Below, in pieces: positions 21,158 to 35,066 of a stretch of DNA of 64,000 bases (position 1 is the stretch's first letter; each line of letters opens with the position of its first letter). The stretch is from positions 93,631 through 157,630 of the forward strand of contig CBDBBM010000005.1 of NCBI GenBank assembly GCA_965203015.1. Direction: 5' to 3'. The position numbers and the translations under genes were made by a program. The notes under the pieces are model-generated. The model did not search any database. It worked only from the letters and a program-made list of their open reading frames with translations, and was not told where the DNA came from. Origin of the DNA: Chloroflexota bacterium (lineage in GTDB: Bacteria > Chloroflexota > UBA11872 > VXNJ01).

Positions 21158-21174
21158 AATCGGTTGACCCGATT
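21158..21174. terminator. Short hairpin AATCGG-ttgac-CCGATT between convergent adh and TIR genes
   Basis: 6 bp stem seen in sequence. Overlaps the TIR gene stop codon. Weak. Confidence 0.2.
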
Positions 21175-21950
21175 CAATCGGTCACAGGACTCTGAATCAA
21201 TTGTGCGATTTCATCGGCGATTTCTGCGACAGTGTGCACGGATGTGCTGCGGGCAACTTTGTCCGCAAGCGAAGGGCTGAAATCAATCACCTTTTGCTTG
21301 GTAACGTCGTGCCAGATAGGAAGCACAACTTGCCCGCCAGCGTTCGATTGGGTGATGATTCCGTCCAATTCGTAGTTCGTCCAGCCTTTTTGCATAAATG
21401 CGGGTGAGAGCACAACTACCGCAAATCGCGATCGCGAGATTCCTCTGTCGATCAATCGGCGCAAGCTGTCACCTATCTTCAGTTCCAAATCGTCGTACCA
21501 AACGTCCAGCCCGTTTGCGATCAGTGCTTCGACCAATGGCTCGGCAACTTCCGACGCGTCCTCTTTCGCATGCGCGATGAACACGTCTTTCGGATCAGAT
21601 CCCCCTTCGCTGCGGATGCGATGCGCATCGCGTATCAAGGTCGGCACCGACGAAAGCGGGGCTTCCCGGATTGGCGGCAATGGGCTGGGGATAATGCGCA
21701 GCGACGACTTGACGCTGCCGCGCAATCCTTGCATGTCGATTGCAATATGCCAGTGCCCTGAATGAGGAATTGCAAGCCTTACCGGCGACTGTGTGGCACG
21801 ACCCCCGAAATACCGGTGCTTTCGGCCGTTTCGGTAGCTGGAGAAATTCGAACCGTCCAGAAGCCTGACGTTTGCGGCGTGGCCCGACAGGACTACTTCC
21901 GCAATCTCGCCTCGCTCCCGGTAGCCCAGATCGTAATGCGTAAATTTCAC
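21174..21950 (-). CDS. DUF1883-like N-terminal domain fused to a TIR domain (predicted NADase effector)
   Basis: C-terminal TIR: DVFIAHAKEDASEVAEPLVEAL...GLDVWYDDLELKIGDSLRRLIDRGISRSRFAVVVLSPAFMQKGWTNYELDGI, with the conserved catalytic Glu in W-x-x-x-E-L. N-terminal MKFTHYDLGYRERGEIAEVVLSGHAANVRLLDGSNFSSYRNGRKHRYFGGRATQSPVRLAIPHSGHWHIAID resembles DUF1883 (from memory). Low-GC gene. ATGA overlap with the upstream gene. Confidence 0.8.
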   Translation of the reverse strand: MKFTHYDLGYRERGEIAEVVLSGHAANVRLLDGSNFSSYRNGRKHRYFGGRATQSPVRLAIPHSGHWHIAIDMQGLRGSVKSSLRIIPSPLPPIREAPLSSVPTLIRDAHRIRSEGGSDPKDVFIAHAKEDASEVAEPLVEALIANGLDVWYDDLELKIGDSLRRLIDRGISRSRFAVVVLSPAFMQKGWTNYELDGIITQSNAGGQVVLPIWHDVTKQKVIDFSPSLADKVARSTSVHTVAEIADEIAQLIQSPVTD

Positions 21951-23155
21951 GCTGACGCACCCAAAGCATCAACGTCGGCCAGATCTTTAATGGTGCCGAC
22001 CCAATCTCCGGCGTACGCTGGATCACTGATCGCGAATGAATGCTCGATCTGCAGGGTTTCACAACTACTCGACCAAGAGTAGAAGTGGTTTAAGCCGGGA
22101 TGGTAGTGGCTGGAAATCAGTTGTTCCCATTCGAGTCGGGACACCACCATAAATGGCGGCGTATCGATCGAAAGTGCGAATTCCCAAATGTCATCGCTCT
22201 TAAATCGCCCTTGGGCGCAGAACGAGCGCCATCTTTCTTCGGGGATGATATTTGCCCACGCGAAGGAATCTGCTTCTTGTTCGACTGCAGGTGGTTCGAA
22301 ATCGATATCGAAACCGTCCAAATGGACCTTGCGATCCCCCTGATGGCGCAGCAGATGTCCGGCCAAATGGTAGAACGACAGCCAAAACGAGTCCGCAGTT
22401 TGCTCATCGGCGCCCAATTGAATCAACGCGCGTTGTTTGTTCAACCAGCGAGCTGCTCCCTTGATGGGTGCGTTGGGGAACGATTCAATCCATCGAAAAA
22501 CGACGCCCGAGTTCGCGCAAACTTGCTCCAGCATCGGCAATAACGCCGCGGGCGGATACTCCATCATCAGGCGGATTTCACCCATTGCTTGCTCGAACAC
22601 TTTGGCGTTGAAATCTGCAACTTCCGCGATTTCCGCTTCCAATTCGCCTTTTCGCAGCCAAGCGTAAAGAGATCCGATCGTGTCCGCTGCTAGCTCGCTT
22701 GAGGGCAATTTGACACCCGCGGATTCGATGCACCGGGTTGGATCGGCATCGAAAGCTCCGAGGAAATCCAGTAGGGACGCCGCCAACGCTTCGGTATCGA
22801 GCGTCGAGTCCAGCCAGCCGCGGTGCGTCATGGCGTCGGTCGGATATGCGCTCAGCCATGCTTCATTGTTTCGCGAGTTCTGTCGTTCGCGTTGTCGCGC
22901 TAGGACCAGTTGATACGTGTTCTCTAGATTGAGCCAGTACTGAGGATCGTGCCCCAGCACTGTTCCCAATTGAATAGCGGTGTCCGGCGTAATGGCTTTT
23001 TTGGCGTTGGCAATTTCACTGATTACCTGATACGGCCGCCCCATTCTTCCGGCTAATTCTTTTTGGGACATCCCTCTCGCTGCCAATTCCTCAACAAGGA
23101 ATTCACCGGGAGGAATTGGCAAGTCTGAGTGGACGCGGGACGATTTATTGGTCAT
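21947..23155 (-). CDS. HigA-family XRE HTH antitoxin-like domain fused to COG2856/ImmA-IrrE-like domain with degenerate HEXXH (HLAGH)
   Basis: N-terminal IPPGEFLVEELAARGMSQKELAGRMGRPYQVISEIANAKKAITPDTAIQLGTVLGHDPQYWLNLENTY is HigA/VapI-like. The C-terminal region FWLSFYHLAGHLLRH...EQEADSFAWANIIPEE matches the spacing of RFTLAHELGHLLLH...E..AN.FA of ImmA/IrrE, but the Glu of HEXXH is replaced by Leu. Confidence 0.7.
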   Translation of the reverse strand: MTNKSSRVHSDLPIPPGEFLVEELAARGMSQKELAGRMGRPYQVISEIANAKKAITPDTAIQLGTVLGHDPQYWLNLENTYQLVLARQRERQNSRNNEAWLSAYPTDAMTHRGWLDSTLDTEALAASLLDFLGAFDADPTRCIESAGVKLPSSELAADTIGSLYAWLRKGELEAEIAEVADFNAKVFEQAMGEIRLMMEYPPAALLPMLEQVCANSGVVFRWIESFPNAPIKGAARWLNKQRALIQLGADEQTADSFWLSFYHLAGHLLRHQGDRKVHLDGFDIDFEPPAVEQEADSFAWANIIPEERWRSFCAQGRFKSDDIWEFALSIDTPPFMVVSRLEWEQLISSHYHPGLNHFYSWSSSCETLQIEHSFAISDPAYAGDWVGTIKDLADVDALGASA

Positions 23156-23444
23156 AGTGATTGGTAACTTCTTTCACGACAACTACCCGCTGGTCCGCGG
23201 TTGGGACCAGAATCAGCCTCCACGTAGAGTCAATGTCAGCGGCGTATTCCCCTGATCGAGACCCCTTCAACGGATGCAGGCGCAACGCACGAATCCTGTG
23301 CAAGTCATCGAATGTCTGCACGGCATAAATCTGTTCAATTCGCATCACATACTTGCGTCCGACTACCGGCCCCCACTTTCGAATTGCTTTCTCAGAATCC
23401 TCGTAATTTCTTTGCAGCTGTCTATTGGCAAAAACTATTTCCAT
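23145..23444 (-). CDS. higB: HigB-like toxin (RelE/ParE superfamily mRNA interferase)
   Basis: 99 aa. LHPLKGSRSGEYAADIDSTWRLIL...HYDQ matches HigB family (LHPLKGDR.G.WS.R.N..WR..F...Y.DYH). Sits upstream of and overlapping the HigA-like gene. Confidence 0.75.
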   Translation of the reverse strand: MEIVFANRQLQRNYEDSEKAIRKWGPVVGRKYVMRIEQIYAVQTFDDLHRIRALRLHPLKGSRSGEYAADIDSTWRLILVPTADQRVVVVKEVTNHYDQ

Positions 23445-28111: not shown

Positions 28112-29374
28112 TCAGCCCATTTCGCGCAGGTACTGGCCCGCCGACATGGCGACCGCGGCCCCTTCGCCGGCGGCCGTGGCGACGTACTTGGAGCTGTTCT
28201 TGCGGATATCGCCGGCGGCGAATATCCCCGGCACGGACGTTTCGAAAAGCCCCGGCTGGGCGGCCGGTGAATCCTCCAGGAGCGCCATCAGTTCGGCCGC
28301 TTCCGCGTCCGGCGGCGGCGCGTCCGGACCGGTGCGGACAAACCCCCAGTCGTCCAGGGCAACGGCACTGCTTTTCAGGAATCCCGAGTTGGGCACCATT
28401 CCGATGAAAACGAACGCGCCGCGGGCCTCGATCTCGCGCATCTCGCCGCTGATCTGATCCCGGACCTGCACCGATTCGAAATGATCGCGGCCGCGGAATT
28501 CGCGCACGTCCAGGTGATATTGGACGTCCACGTTCGGCACCTCGAGCAGCCGCTGGGCCAGTATCGAGTTGGCGGTCAGGCTGTCGCCGCGCACCAGCAG
28601 GTAGACCCGGGCCGCGTGTTCGGAAAGCGCCAGCGCGGCCTCGGCCGCCGAGTTGCCGCCGCCCACCACCGCCACTTCCTCACCGGCATAGGCGAACGCG
28701 TCGCTGGCGGCGCAGTAGTGCACCCCGGCGTTCATGAATTTTGATTCCCCTGGCACCCGCATGCGCCGGTAGGTGCTGCCGGCGGCGATGATCAGGGCGA
28801 AACAGCTGTATTCGGCCCCGTCGGCGGTGACCACGGTGTGGTACCGGCCCAGGCTGTCGACCTCGACCACATCGGCCGCCTGGATCATTTCGACGTTGGC
28901 CCGGCGGGCCTGTTCGCGCAGGCGGTCGCTCAGTTCGAAACCGCTGATCGAATCCGGGAATCCGGGCATGTTTTCAACCTGGCCGGAAACGTTCGCGTTG
29001 CCCCCGCCGAGATCGCGCTCGATGACCAGGGTGTCGATCCCGTCCTGGGTGGCAAATATCGCGGCCGTCAGTCCGGCCGGACCGCCGCCCACGATGATCA
29101 GCGGCCAGTAACGGCGCGCGCTGCCGATCTCGATTTCCAGCGCACCCGCAAGCTCGGCGTTGCTGGGGCGGAAAAGGGTCGCTCCGCCCTCAATCAGCAC
29201 CGTCGGCAGGACCGGACGTCCCTCTCCCAGCTCTTCGAACTCGGCGGCCGCGGCCGGTTGCTCGACCAGGTCGACCCAGCGGAATCTGACGCCCTGTTCG
29301 CCCAGGAACTTCCTGCTCCGACGGCAGTCGGGGCACCACCGGATTCCGTAAATCGTGACTTTTGGGTTGGCCAT
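28112..29374 (-). CDS. Glutaredoxin-like (NrdH/Grx, CPDC) domain fused to thioredoxin-reductase-like flavoprotein with CAAS in place of CxxC
   Basis: N-terminal VTIYGIRWCPDCRRSRKFL, then FAD GGGPAGLTAA and NAD(P) GGGNSAAEAA motifs. The active-site position reads HYCAASDAF versus canonical CATCDGF. Confidence 0.7.
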   Translation of the reverse strand: MANPKVTIYGIRWCPDCRRSRKFLGEQGVRFRWVDLVEQPAAAAEFEELGEGRPVLPTVLIEGGATLFRPSNAELAGALEIEIGSARRYWPLIIVGGGPAGLTAAIFATQDGIDTLVIERDLGGGNANVSGQVENMPGFPDSISGFELSDRLREQARRANVEMIQAADVVEVDSLGRYHTVVTADGAEYSCFALIIAAGSTYRRMRVPGESKFMNAGVHYCAASDAFAYAGEEVAVVGGGNSAAEAALALSEHAARVYLLVRGDSLTANSILAQRLLEVPNVDVQYHLDVREFRGRDHFESVQVRDQISGEMREIEARGAFVFIGMVPNSGFLKSSAVALDDWGFVRTGPDAPPPDAEAAELMALLEDSPAAQPGLFETSVPGIFAAGDIRKNSSKYVATAAGEGAAVAMSAGQYLREMG

Positions 29375-29614
29375 GGCGGGTTCCCGGCCCGGTGGCGGGG
29401 TCTCGGACTATGGCTTTCCCCGGTCCGGCCGTTTCCCCATTCTTGCGCACGATCCAGCGCCCGCCGGAGCGATTGGGGGCGGAGTTGCGCACCACCGCGG
29501 CATTCGGCCAAATTAACCTAATTGACGGACCGGCAACGGCGCTGCCGCACGGCGGTCAGAAGTCGCGCCCGGGCGCGATCGTCCGACCGGCGCCGGTCGC
29601 AAGCGAGGCGGGTC

Positions 29615-30793
29615 ATGGCGCGATTCTGGGAAGTCCTGCTGGTCGCCACGCGCCTGGGCCTGACCTCCTTCGGCGGCCCGATCGCCCACATCGGCTATTT
29701 CCGCGAAGAGTACGTGGTCCGCCGCAAATGGCTCAGCGATGCGCGGTTCGCCGAACTGGTCGCGCTGTGCCAGTTCCTGCCCGGCCCGGCCAGTTCGCAG
29801 CTTGGGATCGCGATCGGGTTCGGCCGCGCCGGTTACCTTGGGGCACTGCTGGCCTGGCTGGGTTTCACGCTGCCTTCGGCCGCGGCCATGATCCTCTTTG
29901 CCTACGGGGTCACCGAATTCGGCGGTGAGGATGCCGGCTGGCTGCGCGGCCTGCAGATCGTGGTGGTCGCGGTCGTGGCCAACGCCCTCTGGGGAATGGC
30001 CAATCAACTCGCCCCCGACCGAGCGCGCATCACGGTCGCGGTGCTGGCGGCGATCGCGCTGCTTCTGTTCGGCGGCGTGGCCGTGCAGCTGGCGGTCATC
30101 GCCGCCGGCGCCGCCCTGGGGCTGGTCTTCCTGCGCCCCGAGCCTGAAAACCAGGCCGCTCCACCGATTCGGCGCCGCGGCATCGGCATTGCGGCGCTGG
30201 CCCTGGTGGTATTTGCGGGACTGCTGGTGATTCTGCCGGTGGCCAGCCGGCTTGCCGCAGATCCGGTCCTTGAGGCTTTCGAGAGTTTCTACCGCTCCGG
30301 GTCGCTGGTCTTCGGCGGGGGCCACGTGGTCCTGCCGCTGCTGCAGGCCGAAGTGGTCGGACCGGGCTGGGTCTCGGCCAACGATTTCGTCGCCGGTTAC
30401 GGTGCCGCGCAGGCGATCCCGGGCCCGCTCTTTACCTTCTCGGCCTACCTCGGAACGATCATGGGGATAACCGGCCCGGCCTGGCTGGGCGGGTTGATCG
30501 CGCTGGCGGCCGTGTTCCTGCCGTCTTTCCTGCTGGTCCTGGGCCTGCTGCCGATCTGGGACCGGGTCCGCACCATCCAGTCCGTGCGCAGGGCGCTGAT
30601 GGGCGTGAATGCCGCCGTAGTCGGGATCCTGCTGGCGGCGCTCTATGACCCGGTTTTCTCCGGGGCGATTTCATCGGCGCCGGATTTTGCCCTAGCGGCG
30701 GCCGCATTCGCGCTGCTTTCGTTCTGGAAGGTCCCGCCCTGGCTGGTGGTCGTGCTGACCGCGGCGGGAGGGGTTCTGCTGCAGGTGATTTAG
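29615..30793 (+). CDS. chrA: Chromate transporter ChrA (CHR family)
   Basis: GLTSFGGPIAHIGYF and the duplicated-half architecture FGGGHVVLPLLQ. ATG at 29615. Confidence 0.8.
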   Translation: MARFWEVLLVATRLGLTSFGGPIAHIGYFREEYVVRRKWLSDARFAELVALCQFLPGPASSQLGIAIGFGRAGYLGALLAWLGFTLPSAAAMILFAYGVTEFGGEDAGWLRGLQIVVVAVVANALWGMANQLAPDRARITVAVLAAIALLLFGGVAVQLAVIAAGAALGLVFLRPEPENQAAPPIRRRGIGIAALALVVFAGLLVILPVASRLAADPVLEAFESFYRSGSLVFGGGHVVLPLLQAEVVGPGWVSANDFVAGYGAAQAIPGPLFTFSAYLGTIMGITGPAWLGGLIALAAVFLPSFLLVLGLLPIWDRVRTIQSVRRALMGVNAAVVGILLAALYDPVFSGAISSAPDFALAAAAFALLSFWKVPPWLVVVLTAAGGVLLQVI

Positions 30794-31081
30794 CAGCGGC
30801 TCCGGAGCCGGCCGGTAGCGCGGGCCGGCAAAGCCGCCAGCCCGGGTGCAATCATCGCCGGGCGAACGCCACCCGTCCGGGTTGGCGGGAGGCGCGATCG
30901 CGGCGGGGCCGCCCGGCGCGGCCACGGGGGCCCCCGCCGATGCGGCCCGCCTGCCCGCGCCGCAGCTCGGCCTCGATCCGCCCGCCGCCGGGCCGCCCGG
31001 CCCCGTGTTACCGGGCGCCAATGCCTGTACGCGTTGCGAGCCGGGCGTTGCAGCGGCAATTCTTGACTAAAACACCTGAAT

Positions 31082-32332
31082 ATGCCAAGATTCGCAATGA
31101 GTTCGCTTGCGGCTGCCGCCCGCGCGATGGATCGCTCGACGGCCGGCGGTCTGTTATCGCTTGCCGGTCTCGCAGTCGTTTACCTCCTCGCGCTGAGCGC
31201 CGACGCTGCATGGCCGGTGTTCTGGGTCGTTGGAGTCGCCTTCGGGGCGATTTGTCAGCGCAGCCGGTTCTGCTTCGTGGCCGGATTTCGCGACCTTTTC
31301 CTTATGCGCCAGGGCCGCATGCTGCGCGGCATCATAGCCGGCCTGGCCGTCGCCACCGCCGGATTCGCGATGGTGATGGCAACCATCGTTCCCAACCCCG
31401 GGTCGGGGGTGTTGCCCTCCGACGCCCACATCCTCCCGCTCGGGATCGCCACCGTACTGGGCGGACTCCTCTTTGGCTACGGCATGGTCATCGCCGGCGG
31501 CTGCGTGAGCGGATCGCTCTACCGCATGGGCGAGGGCTACATCGGTTCCTGGGTGGCGATCGGCGGAGTGCTGATCGGACTTTATGCGCTGAACCGCACC
31601 TGGAACTGGTGGTGGGACAACCAGATCAGCGGCGACATCATCGCCTGGATTCCGACCAGCTTCACCTATACCTGGGCGATCGTGACGACGCTGGTGCTGC
31701 TGGCGCTCGCGTTCGCCGCCGTTTCCTGGTGGGAACGGCGCGGTTTTACCGCCATGTCGGTGGCCATTCCCATCAGCTCGGCCGCTCCGCAGCCCGCCGG
31801 CCCGGACACCACGCTGGCGGCCGTTGCCCGGAAGGTTTTCCGGGCCGAATGGACCCCGCTGATCGGCGGCATCGCGCTGGCCGCCGTCAACATCCTGCTC
31901 TTTATCCGCTATCGCCCGCTGGGCGTGGTCGGCGAACTATCGCGCTGGGTCTCCGACCTCGCCGACAGCGTTGGCGCCGGCGTCGGCGAACTGAACGGGA
32001 TCAGCGACCTTCCCGGTTGCGTGCCGCGCTTTGTCGAGGGAACCTGGTTCACCGACGCGTTCATGCTCAACGCCGGAATAATCGCCGGCGCTTTCACGGC
32101 CGCGCTGCTGGCGCGTGAATTTCGCCTGCGCATCCCGCGCAGCCCCCGCCGCTACCTGCAATCGCTCGGCGGCGGCGTGGTGATGGGCTACGGCGCCGGG
32201 CTGGGCCTGGGGTGCACGATCGGGGCGTTCTTCTCGGCAATCCCCTCGCTTGCCCTCAACGGCTGGGTGTACGCGCTGGCGCTGGCCGTGGGCGCATACG
32301 CCGGGACCGCGTTCATCAGGAGATTCCCGTGA
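31082..32332 (+). CDS. YeeE/YedE family sulfur-compound (thiosulfate) transporter
   Basis: Two halves with conserved Cys motifs (QRSRFCF, AGGCVSG, GLGLGCTIG). Confidence 0.75.
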   Translation: MPRFAMSSLAAAARAMDRSTAGGLLSLAGLAVVYLLALSADAAWPVFWVVGVAFGAICQRSRFCFVAGFRDLFLMRQGRMLRGIIAGLAVATAGFAMVMATIVPNPGSGVLPSDAHILPLGIATVLGGLLFGYGMVIAGGCVSGSLYRMGEGYIGSWVAIGGVLIGLYALNRTWNWWWDNQISGDIIAWIPTSFTYTWAIVTTLVLLALAFAAVSWWERRGFTAMSVAIPISSAAPQPAGPDTTLAAVARKVFRAEWTPLIGGIALAAVNILLFIRYRPLGVVGELSRWVSDLADSVGAGVGELNGISDLPGCVPRFVEGTWFTDAFMLNAGIIAGAFTAALLAREFRLRIPRSPRRYLQSLGGGVVMGYGAGLGLGCTIGAFFSAIPSLALNGWVYALALAVGAYAGTAFIRRFP

Positions 32333-32601
32333 GCGTGAAAACCCTTGACCTGCGGGGCCGGCCGGCCCCGGAACAGATGCGGCTGGCCCAGGCCGCGGTC
32401 GGGAAAGCGGCCGCCGGCAAAGCGCTGCAGATCAGCACCGACCTTGAAATCGTCGCCACCTCGGTGCTGGCGGCGGCGGCCGGCCAGGGCCTGGCGGGCC
32501 GCGTCGAACCACCCGCCGACGGGGCGCGAACAATAACCATCTCGCCGGGCAACCGCCCGGCCGCGGCAAACCCAAACGAGGAAAAGGAGACCATCCGATG
32601 A
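32329..32601 (+). CDS. TusA-like protein lacking the catalytic cysteine
   Basis: KTLDLRGRPAPEQMRLAQ aligns to the TusA LDLRGLxCPxPLL motif with CP replaced by RP. GTGA overlap with yeeE and ATGA overlap with the next gene. Confidence 0.45.
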   Translation: MSVKTLDLRGRPAPEQMRLAQAAVGKAAAGKALQISTDLEIVATSVLAAAAGQGLAGRVEPPADGARTITISPGNRPAAANPNEEKETIR

Positions 32602-32855
32602 CTCAGGAAAACAAGGCGCCGGTACTCGACGTACGCGGCGAGATCTGCCCATACCCGATGCTGCGCACCACCCGCGAACTCGACAACGTGCGTCCGGGCG
32701 CGCCGGAGCTGCTGGTCTGGACCGACCACCCGCCGGCGCTGGCGACCATCCCGCCGGAAGCGTTCAAGCGCGGTTACGGCTGCGAAATATCCGAACGCCG
32801 GGCCGGCGAGTGGGAGATCCACATCTTCAACGCCGAAGCGGCGGCCGACAAATAA
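32598..32855 (+). CDS. TusA-family sulfurtransferase (YeeD/TsuB-like)
   Basis: LDVRGEICPYPMLRTTRELD with a canonical CPxP motif. Confidence 0.75.
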   Translation: MTQENKAPVLDVRGEICPYPMLRTTRELDNVRPGAPELLVWTDHPPALATIPPEAFKRGYGCEISERRAGEWEIHIFNAEAAADK

Positions 32856-32923
32856 CCCTGCCCAACTCAATTCAACGGGGCGATTTCGTCGCTCCACCAA
32901 CCACAGACATCAAGAGAGGTTTT

Positions 32924-33901
32924 ATGAACATCTGGTCTGGAATATCTGGCGGCCTTGGGCGACTTGGCCGCAAAACCGGTTTGCTGGCCCTGGTCATGCT
33001 GTCGGTGGCCGCCCTGGCCGTGGCCTGCAACCCCTTCGAGGAGGAAGCTCCCGAACTTGCCACCGGCCTGGACGACCGCGGTTATGCCAACACCGAACGG
33101 CTGGTCACGACCCAGTGGATCGAGGACAACCTCGACAACGACCGGGTCTTCCTCCTGGACGTGCGCAAGGAAGAGCAGTACGCCGAGGGTCACATCCCGG
33201 GCGCGGTCCGGGTTACGCCCAACGAAGCTTTCCAGCAGGAGATTAACGGTGTCGCCGGGCTGATCCCGCCGGCATCCCACGTCGCCGGAGTGCTGGCCAG
33301 CATCGGCGCCACGCCCGATGACACCATCGTCATCTACGACCAGCGCGCCTCGCTCTGGGCTTCGCGCGGTCTCTGGGTGCTCGACGTATACGGTCACGAA
33401 GACGTCCGGATCCTCGACGGCGACTTCCCGCTCTGGGAGTCCGAGGGCCGCGAGGTCAGCACCGTAGCCCCGTCAGTTTCGGCTTCCGACTATGAGTTCA
33501 GCGGGACGCCGAACAACGACATCATCGCCAGCTGGGACGACATCATCGCATCGATCGAGGACCCGAGCGTCCTGGTCTGCGATGCCCGCTCGGCCGAAGA
33601 GTACGCCGGTCGCGACGTGCGCGCCGAGCGCGGCGGCCACATCCCCGAATCCGTAAACGTGGACTGGGCCCGCGCCGTGGGCGAGGACGGACGATTCCTG
33701 TCGGCCGCCGAATTGCGCGGGATCTACCAGGGCGAGGGCGTAGAGGCCAACGGTACGGTCTACACGCTCTGCCAGACGGCGGTTCGCGCAACCCACTCGT
33801 GGTTCGTGCTCTCTGACCTGCTCGGTTATCCCGACGTGAAGGTCTACGACGGATCGTGGACCGAGTACGGCAACCGCGCCGACTCCCCGATCGAAACCTA
33901 A
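32924..33901 (+). CDS. Thiosulfate sulfurtransferase (tandem rhodanese), lipoprotein
   Basis: Lipobox LAVAC signal, two rhodanese domains, active-site Cys in TLCQTAVRA. Confidence 0.75.
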   Translation: MNIWSGISGGLGRLGRKTGLLALVMLSVAALAVACNPFEEEAPELATGLDDRGYANTERLVTTQWIEDNLDNDRVFLLDVRKEEQYAEGHIPGAVRVTPNEAFQQEINGVAGLIPPASHVAGVLASIGATPDDTIVIYDQRASLWASRGLWVLDVYGHEDVRILDGDFPLWESEGREVSTVAPSVSASDYEFSGTPNNDIIASWDDIIASIEDPSVLVCDARSAEEYAGRDVRAERGGHIPESVNVDWARAVGEDGRFLSAAELRGIYQGEGVEANGTVYTLCQTAVRATHSWFVLSDLLGYPDVKVYDGSWTEYGNRADSPIET

Positions 33902-34085
33902 AACCCTGCCGGGGCGTCGCGCGACCCGCGACGCCCCGGTACATCTTCCCGGGCCGGACCCGCAAGCGGGATCGGCCCGTCCTTTCAGGGCCCCCGTCCG
34001 CTCGTCGGGAAGAAGGTCCCTGGCGCGCGTCCGGCCGGGACCGGCCGGGTGGGACCCTGGGCGCCCGACTGCGCGGGCGCCGGGC

Positions 34086-35066
34086 TCAATTGGGAGCAGC
34101 TACCCTCGCCAGGCGCAGTTCGTGGGCCCCGTCCTCGCGACCGAGTTCGTAGAAATAAAGCAACTCATCGCCGTAGCGGACGCATTCAAGGTAGCGCAGG
34201 CAGCCGGTGCCGTAGGGACCTTCCAGGATCGGACCGTCCACGGAGTGCTTGACCACGTGGACCAGGTCAAGGGACGAACAGACCCCGGTCTTGTCCTCGT
34301 AGACGTCACCGTCGGTCACGCGGCCGTCGTAAAAGATGACAAATCCCTGCTCGTGCATGACCACCGAGGAGATTCGGGCCACGTTTCGGTCCCAGCCGTT
34401 GCCGGGCGTGGTTATGTCGCGCTGAAATTGGAACCTGCGTCCGCAGGCCGATGTCCATAGTCCGGTCGGGTGCAGCACCAGACCGGTGGTGAACACGTTT
34501 TCGGTCGAGTGCAGGTCCTCGTAGCTGGACCCCGGAACCACCGATTCGCGCGGCGCGTAGGGGACGAACATGTACGTCAACCCGCCGATGAAGAGCACCA
34601 CCGGGTCCTTTACGCCTTCGGTCAGCGTGGAGGCCGGATCGAGAACCCGGATCCGCTTGGCGGGATCGAACGCGCGCGGATCCTCGGCTTCCAGCAGGTC
34701 GATTACCCACCGTCGGTCCGAATCCACGTATGAGATGTAGTAGCGCCAGCTGCCGTCGGGCGCCCGGGCCAGCGCGCTGCGTTCGATCGACGAGGTATCA
34801 AAATCCCCGGCAAAACAGGCCCAGATCTCCTCGAATTCGTCGCCGCCGTCGGAAACGCTGATCGCCGATTTCCAGCCGCGACCGTCATTCAAGGGACGGC
34901 GATGGCGGGTGCTCAGGTAGATCTCACGGCCATCCACCCAGGCGCTGGGGGCGCCCACCCAGTAGCCGTTGCCGGCGGCCTCGGGCTCTTTGATGACCTT
35001 TCCCGCCGCGGGATCGAACAGGGGCAGGGATCCGATCGATTTCACGCCAGTTGGCAACTCATCCAC
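34086..35066 (-). CDS. Hypothetical protein, possible five-bladed beta-propeller glycosidase-like fold
   Basis: ORF only; weak resemblance to the GH43/GH32/GH130 superfamily. Not assignable. Confidence 0.3.
   Translation of the reverse strand: MDELPTGVKSIGSLPLFDPAAGKVIKEPEAAGNGYWVGAPSAWVDGREIYLSTRHRRPLNDGRGWKSAISVSDGGDEFEEIWACFAGDFDTSSIERSALARAPDGSWRYYISYVDSDRRWVIDLLEAEDPRAFDPAKRIRVLDPASTLTEGVKDPVVLFIGGLTYMFVPYAPRESVVPGSSYEDLHSTENVFTTGLVLHPTGLWTSACGRRFQFQRDITTPGNGWDRNVARISSVVMHEQGFVIFYDGRVTDGDVYEDKTGVCSSLDLVHVVKHSVDGPILEGPYGTGCLRYLECVRYGDELLYFYELGREDGAHELRLARVAAPN

Follow-up and report, generated by a model that had tools for sequence, protein, structure and literature searches.

A conserved cysteine-less TusA-fold protein encoded directly downstream of a YeeE-family channel in Chloroflexota

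The 64,000-nucleotide stretch of Chloroflexota DNA analysed here (assembly GCA_965203015.1, contig CBDBBM010000005.1, positions 93,631 to 157,630 of the forward strand; hereafter the window) carries a four-gene module encoding a YeeE/YedE-family membrane channel, two small TusA-like proteins and a tandem-rhodanese lipoprotein. The first of the two small genes, an open reading frame (ORF) hereafter referred to as X (32329..32601, + strand), encodes a 90 aa protein with a predicted TusA fold and zero cysteines. Comparative analysis places X as a partner of YeeE, an association that is new here: across three different gene orders, X follows YeeE in 54 of 54 resolvable metagenome loci. We favour, without great assurance, the reading that X is a non-catalytic, stoichiometric accessory subunit of YeeE on the cytoplasmic side of the membrane.

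Gene order and selection on X

The gene neighbourhood of X was compared among related genomes and in metagenomes. A scan of relatives, with one genome retained per species, yielded 15 loci, all from metagenome-assembled genomes of Chloroflexota or Dehalococcoidia, and a metagenome scan with the cognate TusA returned more than 538 matches, of which 80 loci were kept and the four genes located in each with hidden Markov models. The four-gene arrangement of the window is conserved; X was intact between YeeE and TusA in all 15 species-level genomes, with the GTGA or ATGA overlap with yeeE kept in 14. The metagenomic loci revealed three gene orders: YeeE-X-TusA-rhodanese (29 loci), TusA-rhodanese-YeeE-X (11 loci), and a pair X-YeeE divergent from TusA-rhodanese on the opposite strand (14 loci). 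Wherever the 3' end of yeeE could be resolved, X was located 0-18 nt 3' of it (54/54 loci), and TusA lay directly 5' of the rhodanese gene in all resolved orders. Because X tracks YeeE through the three gene orders while TusA tracks the rhodanese, X is coupled to YeeE and not to TusA. The conserved units are therefore YeeE-X and TusA-rhodanese, and the order seen in the window is one way of joining both. The original prediction, made from the window alone, had described X as wedged between yeeE and tusA; this holds for the window, but elsewhere X stays with YeeE and is not always beside TusA. X takes the position directly 3' of yeeE, which is that of YeeD, in every one of the 15 genomes and the 54 resolvable metagenome loci. 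Searches starting from X, which reached distant members at ~20-35% identity, found YeeE directly 5' in every complete locus; two contig ends cut off the region 5' of X, with a partial YeeE visible at one of them (L019). YeeE-X has a neighbouring gene for a luciferase-like monooxygenase (Pfam Bac_luciferase) in some loci of SAR202 type (L106 5674-6726; L108 5258-6148).

In the window, the sequence and the Pfam matches agree with the originally predicted coordinates and overlaps of the four genes, all on the + strand. The channel gene yeeE (31082..32332) encodes a 416 aa protein matching Pfam Sulf_transp (PF04143) with an E-value of 9.9e-64. Its TGA stop codon (32330-32332) overlaps the GTG start codon of X at 32329 in a GTGA tetranucleotide (32329..32332), and a Shine-Dalgarno-like AGGAG read from the sequence (32318..32322) is positioned 6 nt 5' of the X start, within the 3' end of yeeE. 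The overlap suggests that translation of X is coupled to that of yeeE. The TGA stop codon of X (32599-32601) in turn overlaps the ATG of tusA at 32598 in an ATGA tetranucleotide (32598..32601), with a second Shine-Dalgarno-like motif read from the sequence, AAGGAG (32584..32589), 8 nt 5' of that ATG and inside the tail of X. The tusA gene (32598..32855) encodes an 85 aa YeeD-like TusA (PF01206, E 3.1e-15) in which the canonical persulfide-carrier motif, noted already in the original prediction, is present as LDVRGEIC17PYP, together with a second cysteine, C62. The gene for the tandem rhodanese (PF00581, E 1.4e-31, two stretches) spans 32924..33901; the longest ORF begins with a GTG at 32810, but translation most probably starts from the ATG at 32924, which is preceded by AGAGAGG and agrees with orthologue N-termini. 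Scanning positions 30500-34300 against Rfam at E <=1 identified no RNA element, including no riboswitch or leader 5' of yeeE, and a consensus scan for promoters and terminators around the module found none exceeding shuffled expectation.

ORF length alone is no evidence for X: in this 67% GC DNA, a 9-kb stretch holds 70 ORFs of 50 aa or more. An antisense ORF on the - strand (32316-32900, 194 aa) covers both X and tusA; its GC content by codon position (0.68/0.61/0.73) is atypical and not gene-like, and it was thus treated as probably an artefact of GC-rich DNA. The corresponding values for X (0.74/0.57/0.81) follow a pattern common to the flanking genes. Against four relatives, the core of X (codons 1-75) gave ratios of nonsynonymous to synonymous substitution rates (dN/dS) of 0.11-0.27, versus 1.5-4.7 for off-frame controls in which the same DNA was read in the +1 and +2 frames. 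The tail (codons 76-90; 32554-32601) is near-neutral, with dN/dS of about 0.5-1.2; it is predicted to be disordered, is absent from many AT-rich orthologues, and in the window chiefly houses the tusA ribosome-binding site. No disrupted copy of X occurs in the loci examined, even at identities as low as ~20%.

X is therefore a real gene under purifying selection on its core. That it might instead be a chance ORF in GC-rich DNA had been raised in the original prediction as an outcome that would overturn it, and decay into a pseudogene is a related reading. The abundance of long chance ORFs, the sub-threshold Pfam score of X (see below) and its neutral tail all go with such a reading, but it is ruled out by the frame-specific selection on the core, and conservation in 15 of 15 genomes, persistence to ~20% identity, the coupling and Shine-Dalgarno motif, and a confidently predicted TusA fold point the same way; we accord it next to no credence.

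Fold, family and cysteines of X

An AlphaFold2 model of X computed from a 55-sequence alignment had a mean predicted local distance difference test (pLDDT) score of 84.0, rising to ~91 over residues 1-70, with the last ~15 residues disordered. An earlier run with an 11-sequence alignment (pLDDT 79.5) gave the same b-a-b-a-b-b topology, which defines a core of residues 1-75 followed by a disordered tail of residues 76-90. Fold searches with both models (Foldseek for the first) ranked TusA-family proteins at the top, with the generic IF3-C, SepF, Alba and Smr folds scoring lower. When the profiles of the X and cognate TusA families were compared with hhalign, the probability was 95.3% and the E-value 2.3e-8, and the alignment was full length and in register. 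Against single-family models the signal is weaker. X scored 16.2 bits (E 0.0092) against Pfam TusA PF01206, short of the gathering threshold of 28.6 bits, and 9 of 20 X family members matched that model at E <=1 (best E 2.6e-5). The model for DUF2249 (PF10006), which we take to be a cysteine-less TusA-like family, gave 12 bits (E 0.19; threshold 29.5, not reached) with the window protein and weak matches with 9 of 20 members (best E 3.3e-4), all under the gathering score; it also matched the neighbouring TusA weakly (E 0.00024). A search of NCBIfam with X gave no match, the YeeD/TsuB model NF041048 included.

By profile homology and predicted structure, X is thus best described as a TusA-fold paralogue homologous to the neighbouring TusA, which bears out the fold assignment of the original prediction. 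X nevertheless fails two features that define the TusA family, the Pfam threshold and the catalytic cysteine. On these sequence comparisons, it should best be filed as a YeeE-associated family of its own within the TusA superfamily.

The hhalign profiles set C17-P18-Y19-P20 of TusA against A13-P14-E15-Q16 of X. The proposal that an RPAP motif replaces CPxP in X was right in that the cysteine is missing, but the register it implied (R11-P12-A13-P14) is two residues off. In an alignment of 138 unique X family members, none has a cysteine at the TusA-cysteine column or within one residue of it; the column is occupied by Leu, Phe, Ile, Ala, Pro, Met or Val, with Ala in the window. X can accordingly be described, from models, fold searches and alignments together, as a conserved TusA-fold paralogue without the persulfide cysteine. 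In 40 of the 138 members, the window protein among them, there is no cysteine whatsoever. The cysteine that other members carry at the start of beta3 gives way to Gly (G57) in the window, and other clades have Ala, Ser, Ile, Val or Met there. The counterpart of this cysteine in the profile alignment is the second cysteine of the cognate TusA (C62, in GYGCEI), a match that looks like a trace of a shared origin by duplication. The TusA second cysteine and the X beta3 cysteine are found together in 31 of 37 loci, with neither present in 3 and the TusA one only in 3, a pattern that the window breaks by pairing a cysteine in TusA with a Gly in X. Common ancestry can explain the co-occurrence, although the two cysteines may also act as a functional pair.

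The family alignment contains zero invariant columns, a pattern more in keeping with a binding or structural role than with enzymatic activity. Its best-conserved positions fall in two loops, D7-L8-x-G10 after beta1 and T37-D38 before alpha2, which make up the partner-binding face of TusA-family proteins.

A profile search of ~5.8 billion proteins retrieved 70 X family clusters of 73-118 aa, none of which carried a Pfam domain, and neither Pfam nor NCBIfam holds a model for the family. Their entries, drawn from Chloroflexi, Dehalococcoidia, SAR202 and marine metagenomes, are mostly nameless, and the named ones read 'hypothetical protein' or 'uncharacterized protein'; the sole descriptive name is that of a JGI entry, 'TusA-related sulfurtransferase'. 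A narrow-profile HMMER search of 1.84 billion representatives gave only 19 matches, of which around twelve were genuine small proteins. A literature search found no description of a cysteine-less TusA-like gene beside yeeE. Together with the lack of an NCBIfam match and the sub-threshold Pfam scores, this agrees with the initial view that X lies outside the described YeeE-YeeD system, and the family could be defined and named.

The channel, the carrier and the place of X

The window YeeE scored 216 bits against PF04143 (cut-off 27) and aligned to Spirochaeta thermophila YeeE (StYeeE, 6leo) with an E-value of 5e-28. The three relay cysteines of StYeeE (C22, C91, C293) are kept as C64, C141 and C378, and the cytoplasmic residues that contact YeeD (R28, R98, E101, E261) as R70, R148, E151 and E346; all seven are invariant in 38 of 38 members of the YeeE subfamily. 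Two features are additional: a hydrophobic, presumably transmembrane, N-terminal helix recognized by hydropathy (residues 20-38), and a fourth cysteine, C313, in a G-C motif of the loop 300-320, which is likewise invariant in 38 of 38 and is not a described relay cysteine of StYeeE. The module had been called thiosulfate-uptake-like in the original prediction; by NCBIfam the channel is not a TsuA equivalog, YeeE having reached 135 and 104 bits with models NF052577 and NF041049 against cut-offs of 400 and 645. The YedE/FdhT model NF033796 gave 175 bits (cut-off 350, not reached), and the best NCBIfam matches lean to YedE, YedF and ExtH, all far under their cut-offs. The substrate of the module could be thiosulfate, sulfane sulfur or a selenium species.

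The window TusA gave phmmer matches to TM0983 (1jdq, 9.5e-12) and to the YeeD part of the S. thermophila structure 8k1r (2.1e-6), and a comparison among 9 diverse orthologues left 39 of its positions unchanged. Seven residues of S. thermophila YeeD (StYeeD) are known to weaken YeeE binding when mutated, namely E15, V16, C17, D42, Y43, E48 and R49 (Ikei et al. 2024, PMC11073785), and YeeE binding is lost in the C17A variant (PMC11073785). TusA keeps four of the seven (E15, V16 as Ile, C17 and D42), versus one in X (D42, as D38), so that TusA is the better candidate for the classical YeeD site. In the X family, E15 is substituted by Arg, Lys or Gln, V16 by Pro or Ser, and C17 by a hydrophobic residue.

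The signal peptide of the window rhodanese ends in ...LAVAC, a less canonical lipobox identified by pattern match. Among 79 orthologues, the sequence of positively charged n-region, hydrophobic h-region and cysteine was matched automatically in 77 and recognized by eye in the other two, with lipoboxes such as AACGSD, SACSST and IGCSSD. Because a charged n-region, a hydrophobic stretch and a lipobox cysteine occur in essentially all 79, the rhodanese is taken to be an extracytoplasmic lipoprotein, as first proposed. The active-site loop of its second domain, CQTAVRA, is kept in distant orthologues. Against the NCBIfam model for 3-mercaptopyruvate sulfurtransferase it scored 125.7 bits (cut-off 250) and is not an equivalog.

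These features suggest a four-part import module for sulfur, as sulfane sulfur or thiosulfate, in marine and sponge-associated Chloroflexota. The rhodanese lipoprotein would capture sulfane sulfur or thiosulfate outside the membrane, YeeE would pass the sulfur inward through its three-cysteine relay, and the cysteine-containing TusA would dock at the conserved YeeD site and take the sulfur away. X would be an old paralogue of the neighbouring TusA, now devoid of the catalytic cysteine; with its translation coupled to that of YeeE, it would be produced alongside the channel and would stabilise, gate or adapt it, binding in a mode other than that of YeeD and perhaps through subfamily-specific elements. 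We infer here the physical binding of X to YeeE, the place of that binding, its effect on transport and the identity of the substrate. A further-reaching proposal, which we regard as possible but rather doubtful, is that YeeE-X together with TusA-rhodanese forms an unrecognised type of sulfur importer, with the cysteine-less X as an obligatory structural or gating subunit. Docking and carrying would then be split between two paralogues, whereas YeeD of E. coli unites both roles, and the system would be common among SAR202 and Dehalococcoidia from oceans and sponges and restricted to them.

Several observations weigh against X as an accessory subunit of YeeE. X has no equivalents of E15, V16, C17, Y43, E48 or R49, and since the YeeD binding residues, C17 included, are missing, any binding to YeeE must use another mode or site. 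X also evolves several-fold faster than YeeE and TusA: across the 15 related genomes it shares 49-85% identity with the window protein, versus 77-97% for YeeE and 76-98% for TusA, and whole-gene dN/dS is 0.18-0.65, versus 0.03-0.22 for the other two. The lack of any invariant residue appears unusual for an obligate subunit. A cysteine flanked by basic residues, (R/K)-C-(R/K), stands at the start of beta3 in 98 of the 138 members (71%), and these members may do some chemistry. Finally, 22 loci found through TusA lack YeeE in the available stretch, although many of these are short contigs.

The same evidence bears on what else X might do. One such role is that of a plug or decoy, in which X would sit in the cytoplasmic indentation of YeeE used by YeeD and TusA, closing or regulating it until persulfide-free TusA displaces X. 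The shared fold, the placement of the best-conserved loops on the TusA-family partner face, the conserved YeeD-contact residues of YeeE and the strict linkage of X to YeeE would all suit this role. X, however, keeps only D38 of the seven StYeeD residues and has a hydrophobic residue in place of C17, even though the C17A change alone abolishes binding, and a fixed 1:1 coupling with the channel would be odd for a regulator; the decoy idea put forward in the original prediction is thereby weakened, and we judge it unlikely. The partner of X might otherwise be TusA or the rhodanese, for example in an X-TusA heterodimer in which the persulfide is shielded or positioned. The two genes are paralogous, lie side by side with the ATGA overlap in the window and in 29 of 54 loci, and show the cysteine co-occurrence described above. 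Yet X is apart from TusA in the other 25 loci, where the rhodanese and YeeE intervene or TusA is on the opposite strand, and is never apart from YeeE, while the co-occurrence has an explanation in ancestry and is broken by the window; this partnership seems to us somewhat less likely still.

X could still act as a sulfur carrier through the beta3 cysteine, whose basic flanks in the 98 members are in keeping with such a function. The window protein and 39 others, however, have no cysteine at all, several separate clades have Gly, Ala, Ser, Ile, Val or Met instead, and by topology the start of beta3 and the TusA active-site loops lie at opposite poles. As an alternative active site this cysteine is unlikely, being lost in several clades including that of the window and homologous to a dispensable second cysteine of TusA, and a carrier role for X is improbable. 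A regulatory function unrelated to transport, such as RNA or DNA binding by an IF3-C-, Alba- or Smr-like fold, appears more improbable again: those fold matches are generic, TusA-family matches score higher and are joined by profile homology, the HGxG motif of Smr is absent, and the strict linkage to YeeE argues for a transport-related role.

Genomic surroundings and comparison with known systems

The module is flanked by genes for a ChrA protein, a glutaredoxin-thioredoxin-reductase fusion, an unknown protein and ABC-2 permeases. The ChrA chromate-transporter-family gene (29522-30793, + strand) lies directly 5' of yeeE, a position kept in the closest relatives (L001, L003, L005) and not in more distant ones, and the fusion gene (28112-29374, - strand) lies beside it, upstream of yeeE. 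Directly 3' of the module, a gene on the - strand (34086-35066) encodes a 326-aa protein without a Pfam match that is present at the same position in the closest relatives with 87-93% identity; a second, partial copy lies 5' of yeeE in loci L001 and L004. Further away, the region 21174-23444 (- strand) encodes a DUF1883+TIR-domain protein, a 402-aa HTH_3 protein and a HigB-like toxin, with third-codon-position GC of 0.54-0.62 against ~0.83 nearby, and probably represents a toxin-antitoxin or defence islet gained by horizontal transfer.

To our knowledge, the handover of sulfur from a YeeE-type channel to cytoplasmic carriers was worked out between 2020 and 2024 in one system only. In that system a single protein, YeeD, docks on the channel and cleaves thiosulfate. 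Here there are two TusA-fold paralogues, one with the cysteine and one without, and gene order assigns the cysteine-less one to the channel. If X does act with YeeE, the module would amount to a natural separation-of-function experiment for the YeeE-YeeD mechanism, in which a 'dead' sulfur carrier has been reused as a subunit. A module with an outward-facing rhodanese in SAR202 and Dehalococcoidia, where the TusA subfamily gave more than 538 matches, many of them marine, may also bear on the acquisition of reduced sulfur.

The closest described system is YeeE-YeeD, or TsuA-TsuB, of Escherichia coli and S. thermophila (PMC11073785; 6leo, 8j4c, 8k1r). The relay cysteines and the YeeD-contact residues are the same, and there too a small TusA-fold gene lies directly 3' of yeeE, encoding the cysteine-containing YeeD-like protein. 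The window module differs in that X, the gene that stands where yeeD would, lacks a catalytic cysteine, and the cysteine-containing TusA is a separate gene travelling with the rhodanese, an extracytoplasmic lipoprotein that forms part of the module. Its channel is ~70 residues longer, with a longer middle region, the extra N-terminal transmembrane helix and the fourth invariant cysteine, and its proteins fall far under the NCBIfam cut-offs for TsuA and TsuB. The best NCBIfam matches are instead to the E. coli YedE-YedF pair, for which a selenium-related function has been proposed (NF033796, NF008242), with 175 bits for the channel, which is of similar length (~400 aa), and 37 bits for TusA. 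These scores are nevertheless under the respective cut-offs of 350 and 79, YedF has the cysteine, and no cysteine-less third protein has been described for that pair. DUF2249 proteins resemble X in being small and single-domain, with X falling short of their threshold as given above, and the papers found to mention DUF2249 concern denitrification and nitrate respiration, not YeeE.

In DsrE-type yeeE/tusA clusters, a YeeE-like channel gene likewise adjoins tusA and small relay genes that were long called hypothetical, but the extra genes there encode DsrE-fold proteins with conserved cysteines, whereas here the extra protein has a TusA fold and lacks the catalytic cysteine. Membership in the YTD cluster (yeeE-tusA-dsrEFH type II) was rejected because the window module consists of YeeE, X, TusA and the rhodanese only, with no DsrE-like gene. 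Finally, the SoxT1A and SoxT1B modules of Hyphomicrobium denitrificans follow the same proposed logic, in which an extracytoplasmic protein delivers to a YeeE-like channel and the channel to a cytoplasmic TusA or rhodanese (PMC11582611). They differ in having SoxS or DsbA outside and Rhd442 or TusA inside, in channel length (330-350 aa for SoxT proteins, against 416 aa for the window YeeE), and in that a cysteine-less TusA paralogue such as X is not described among their components (PMC11582611).

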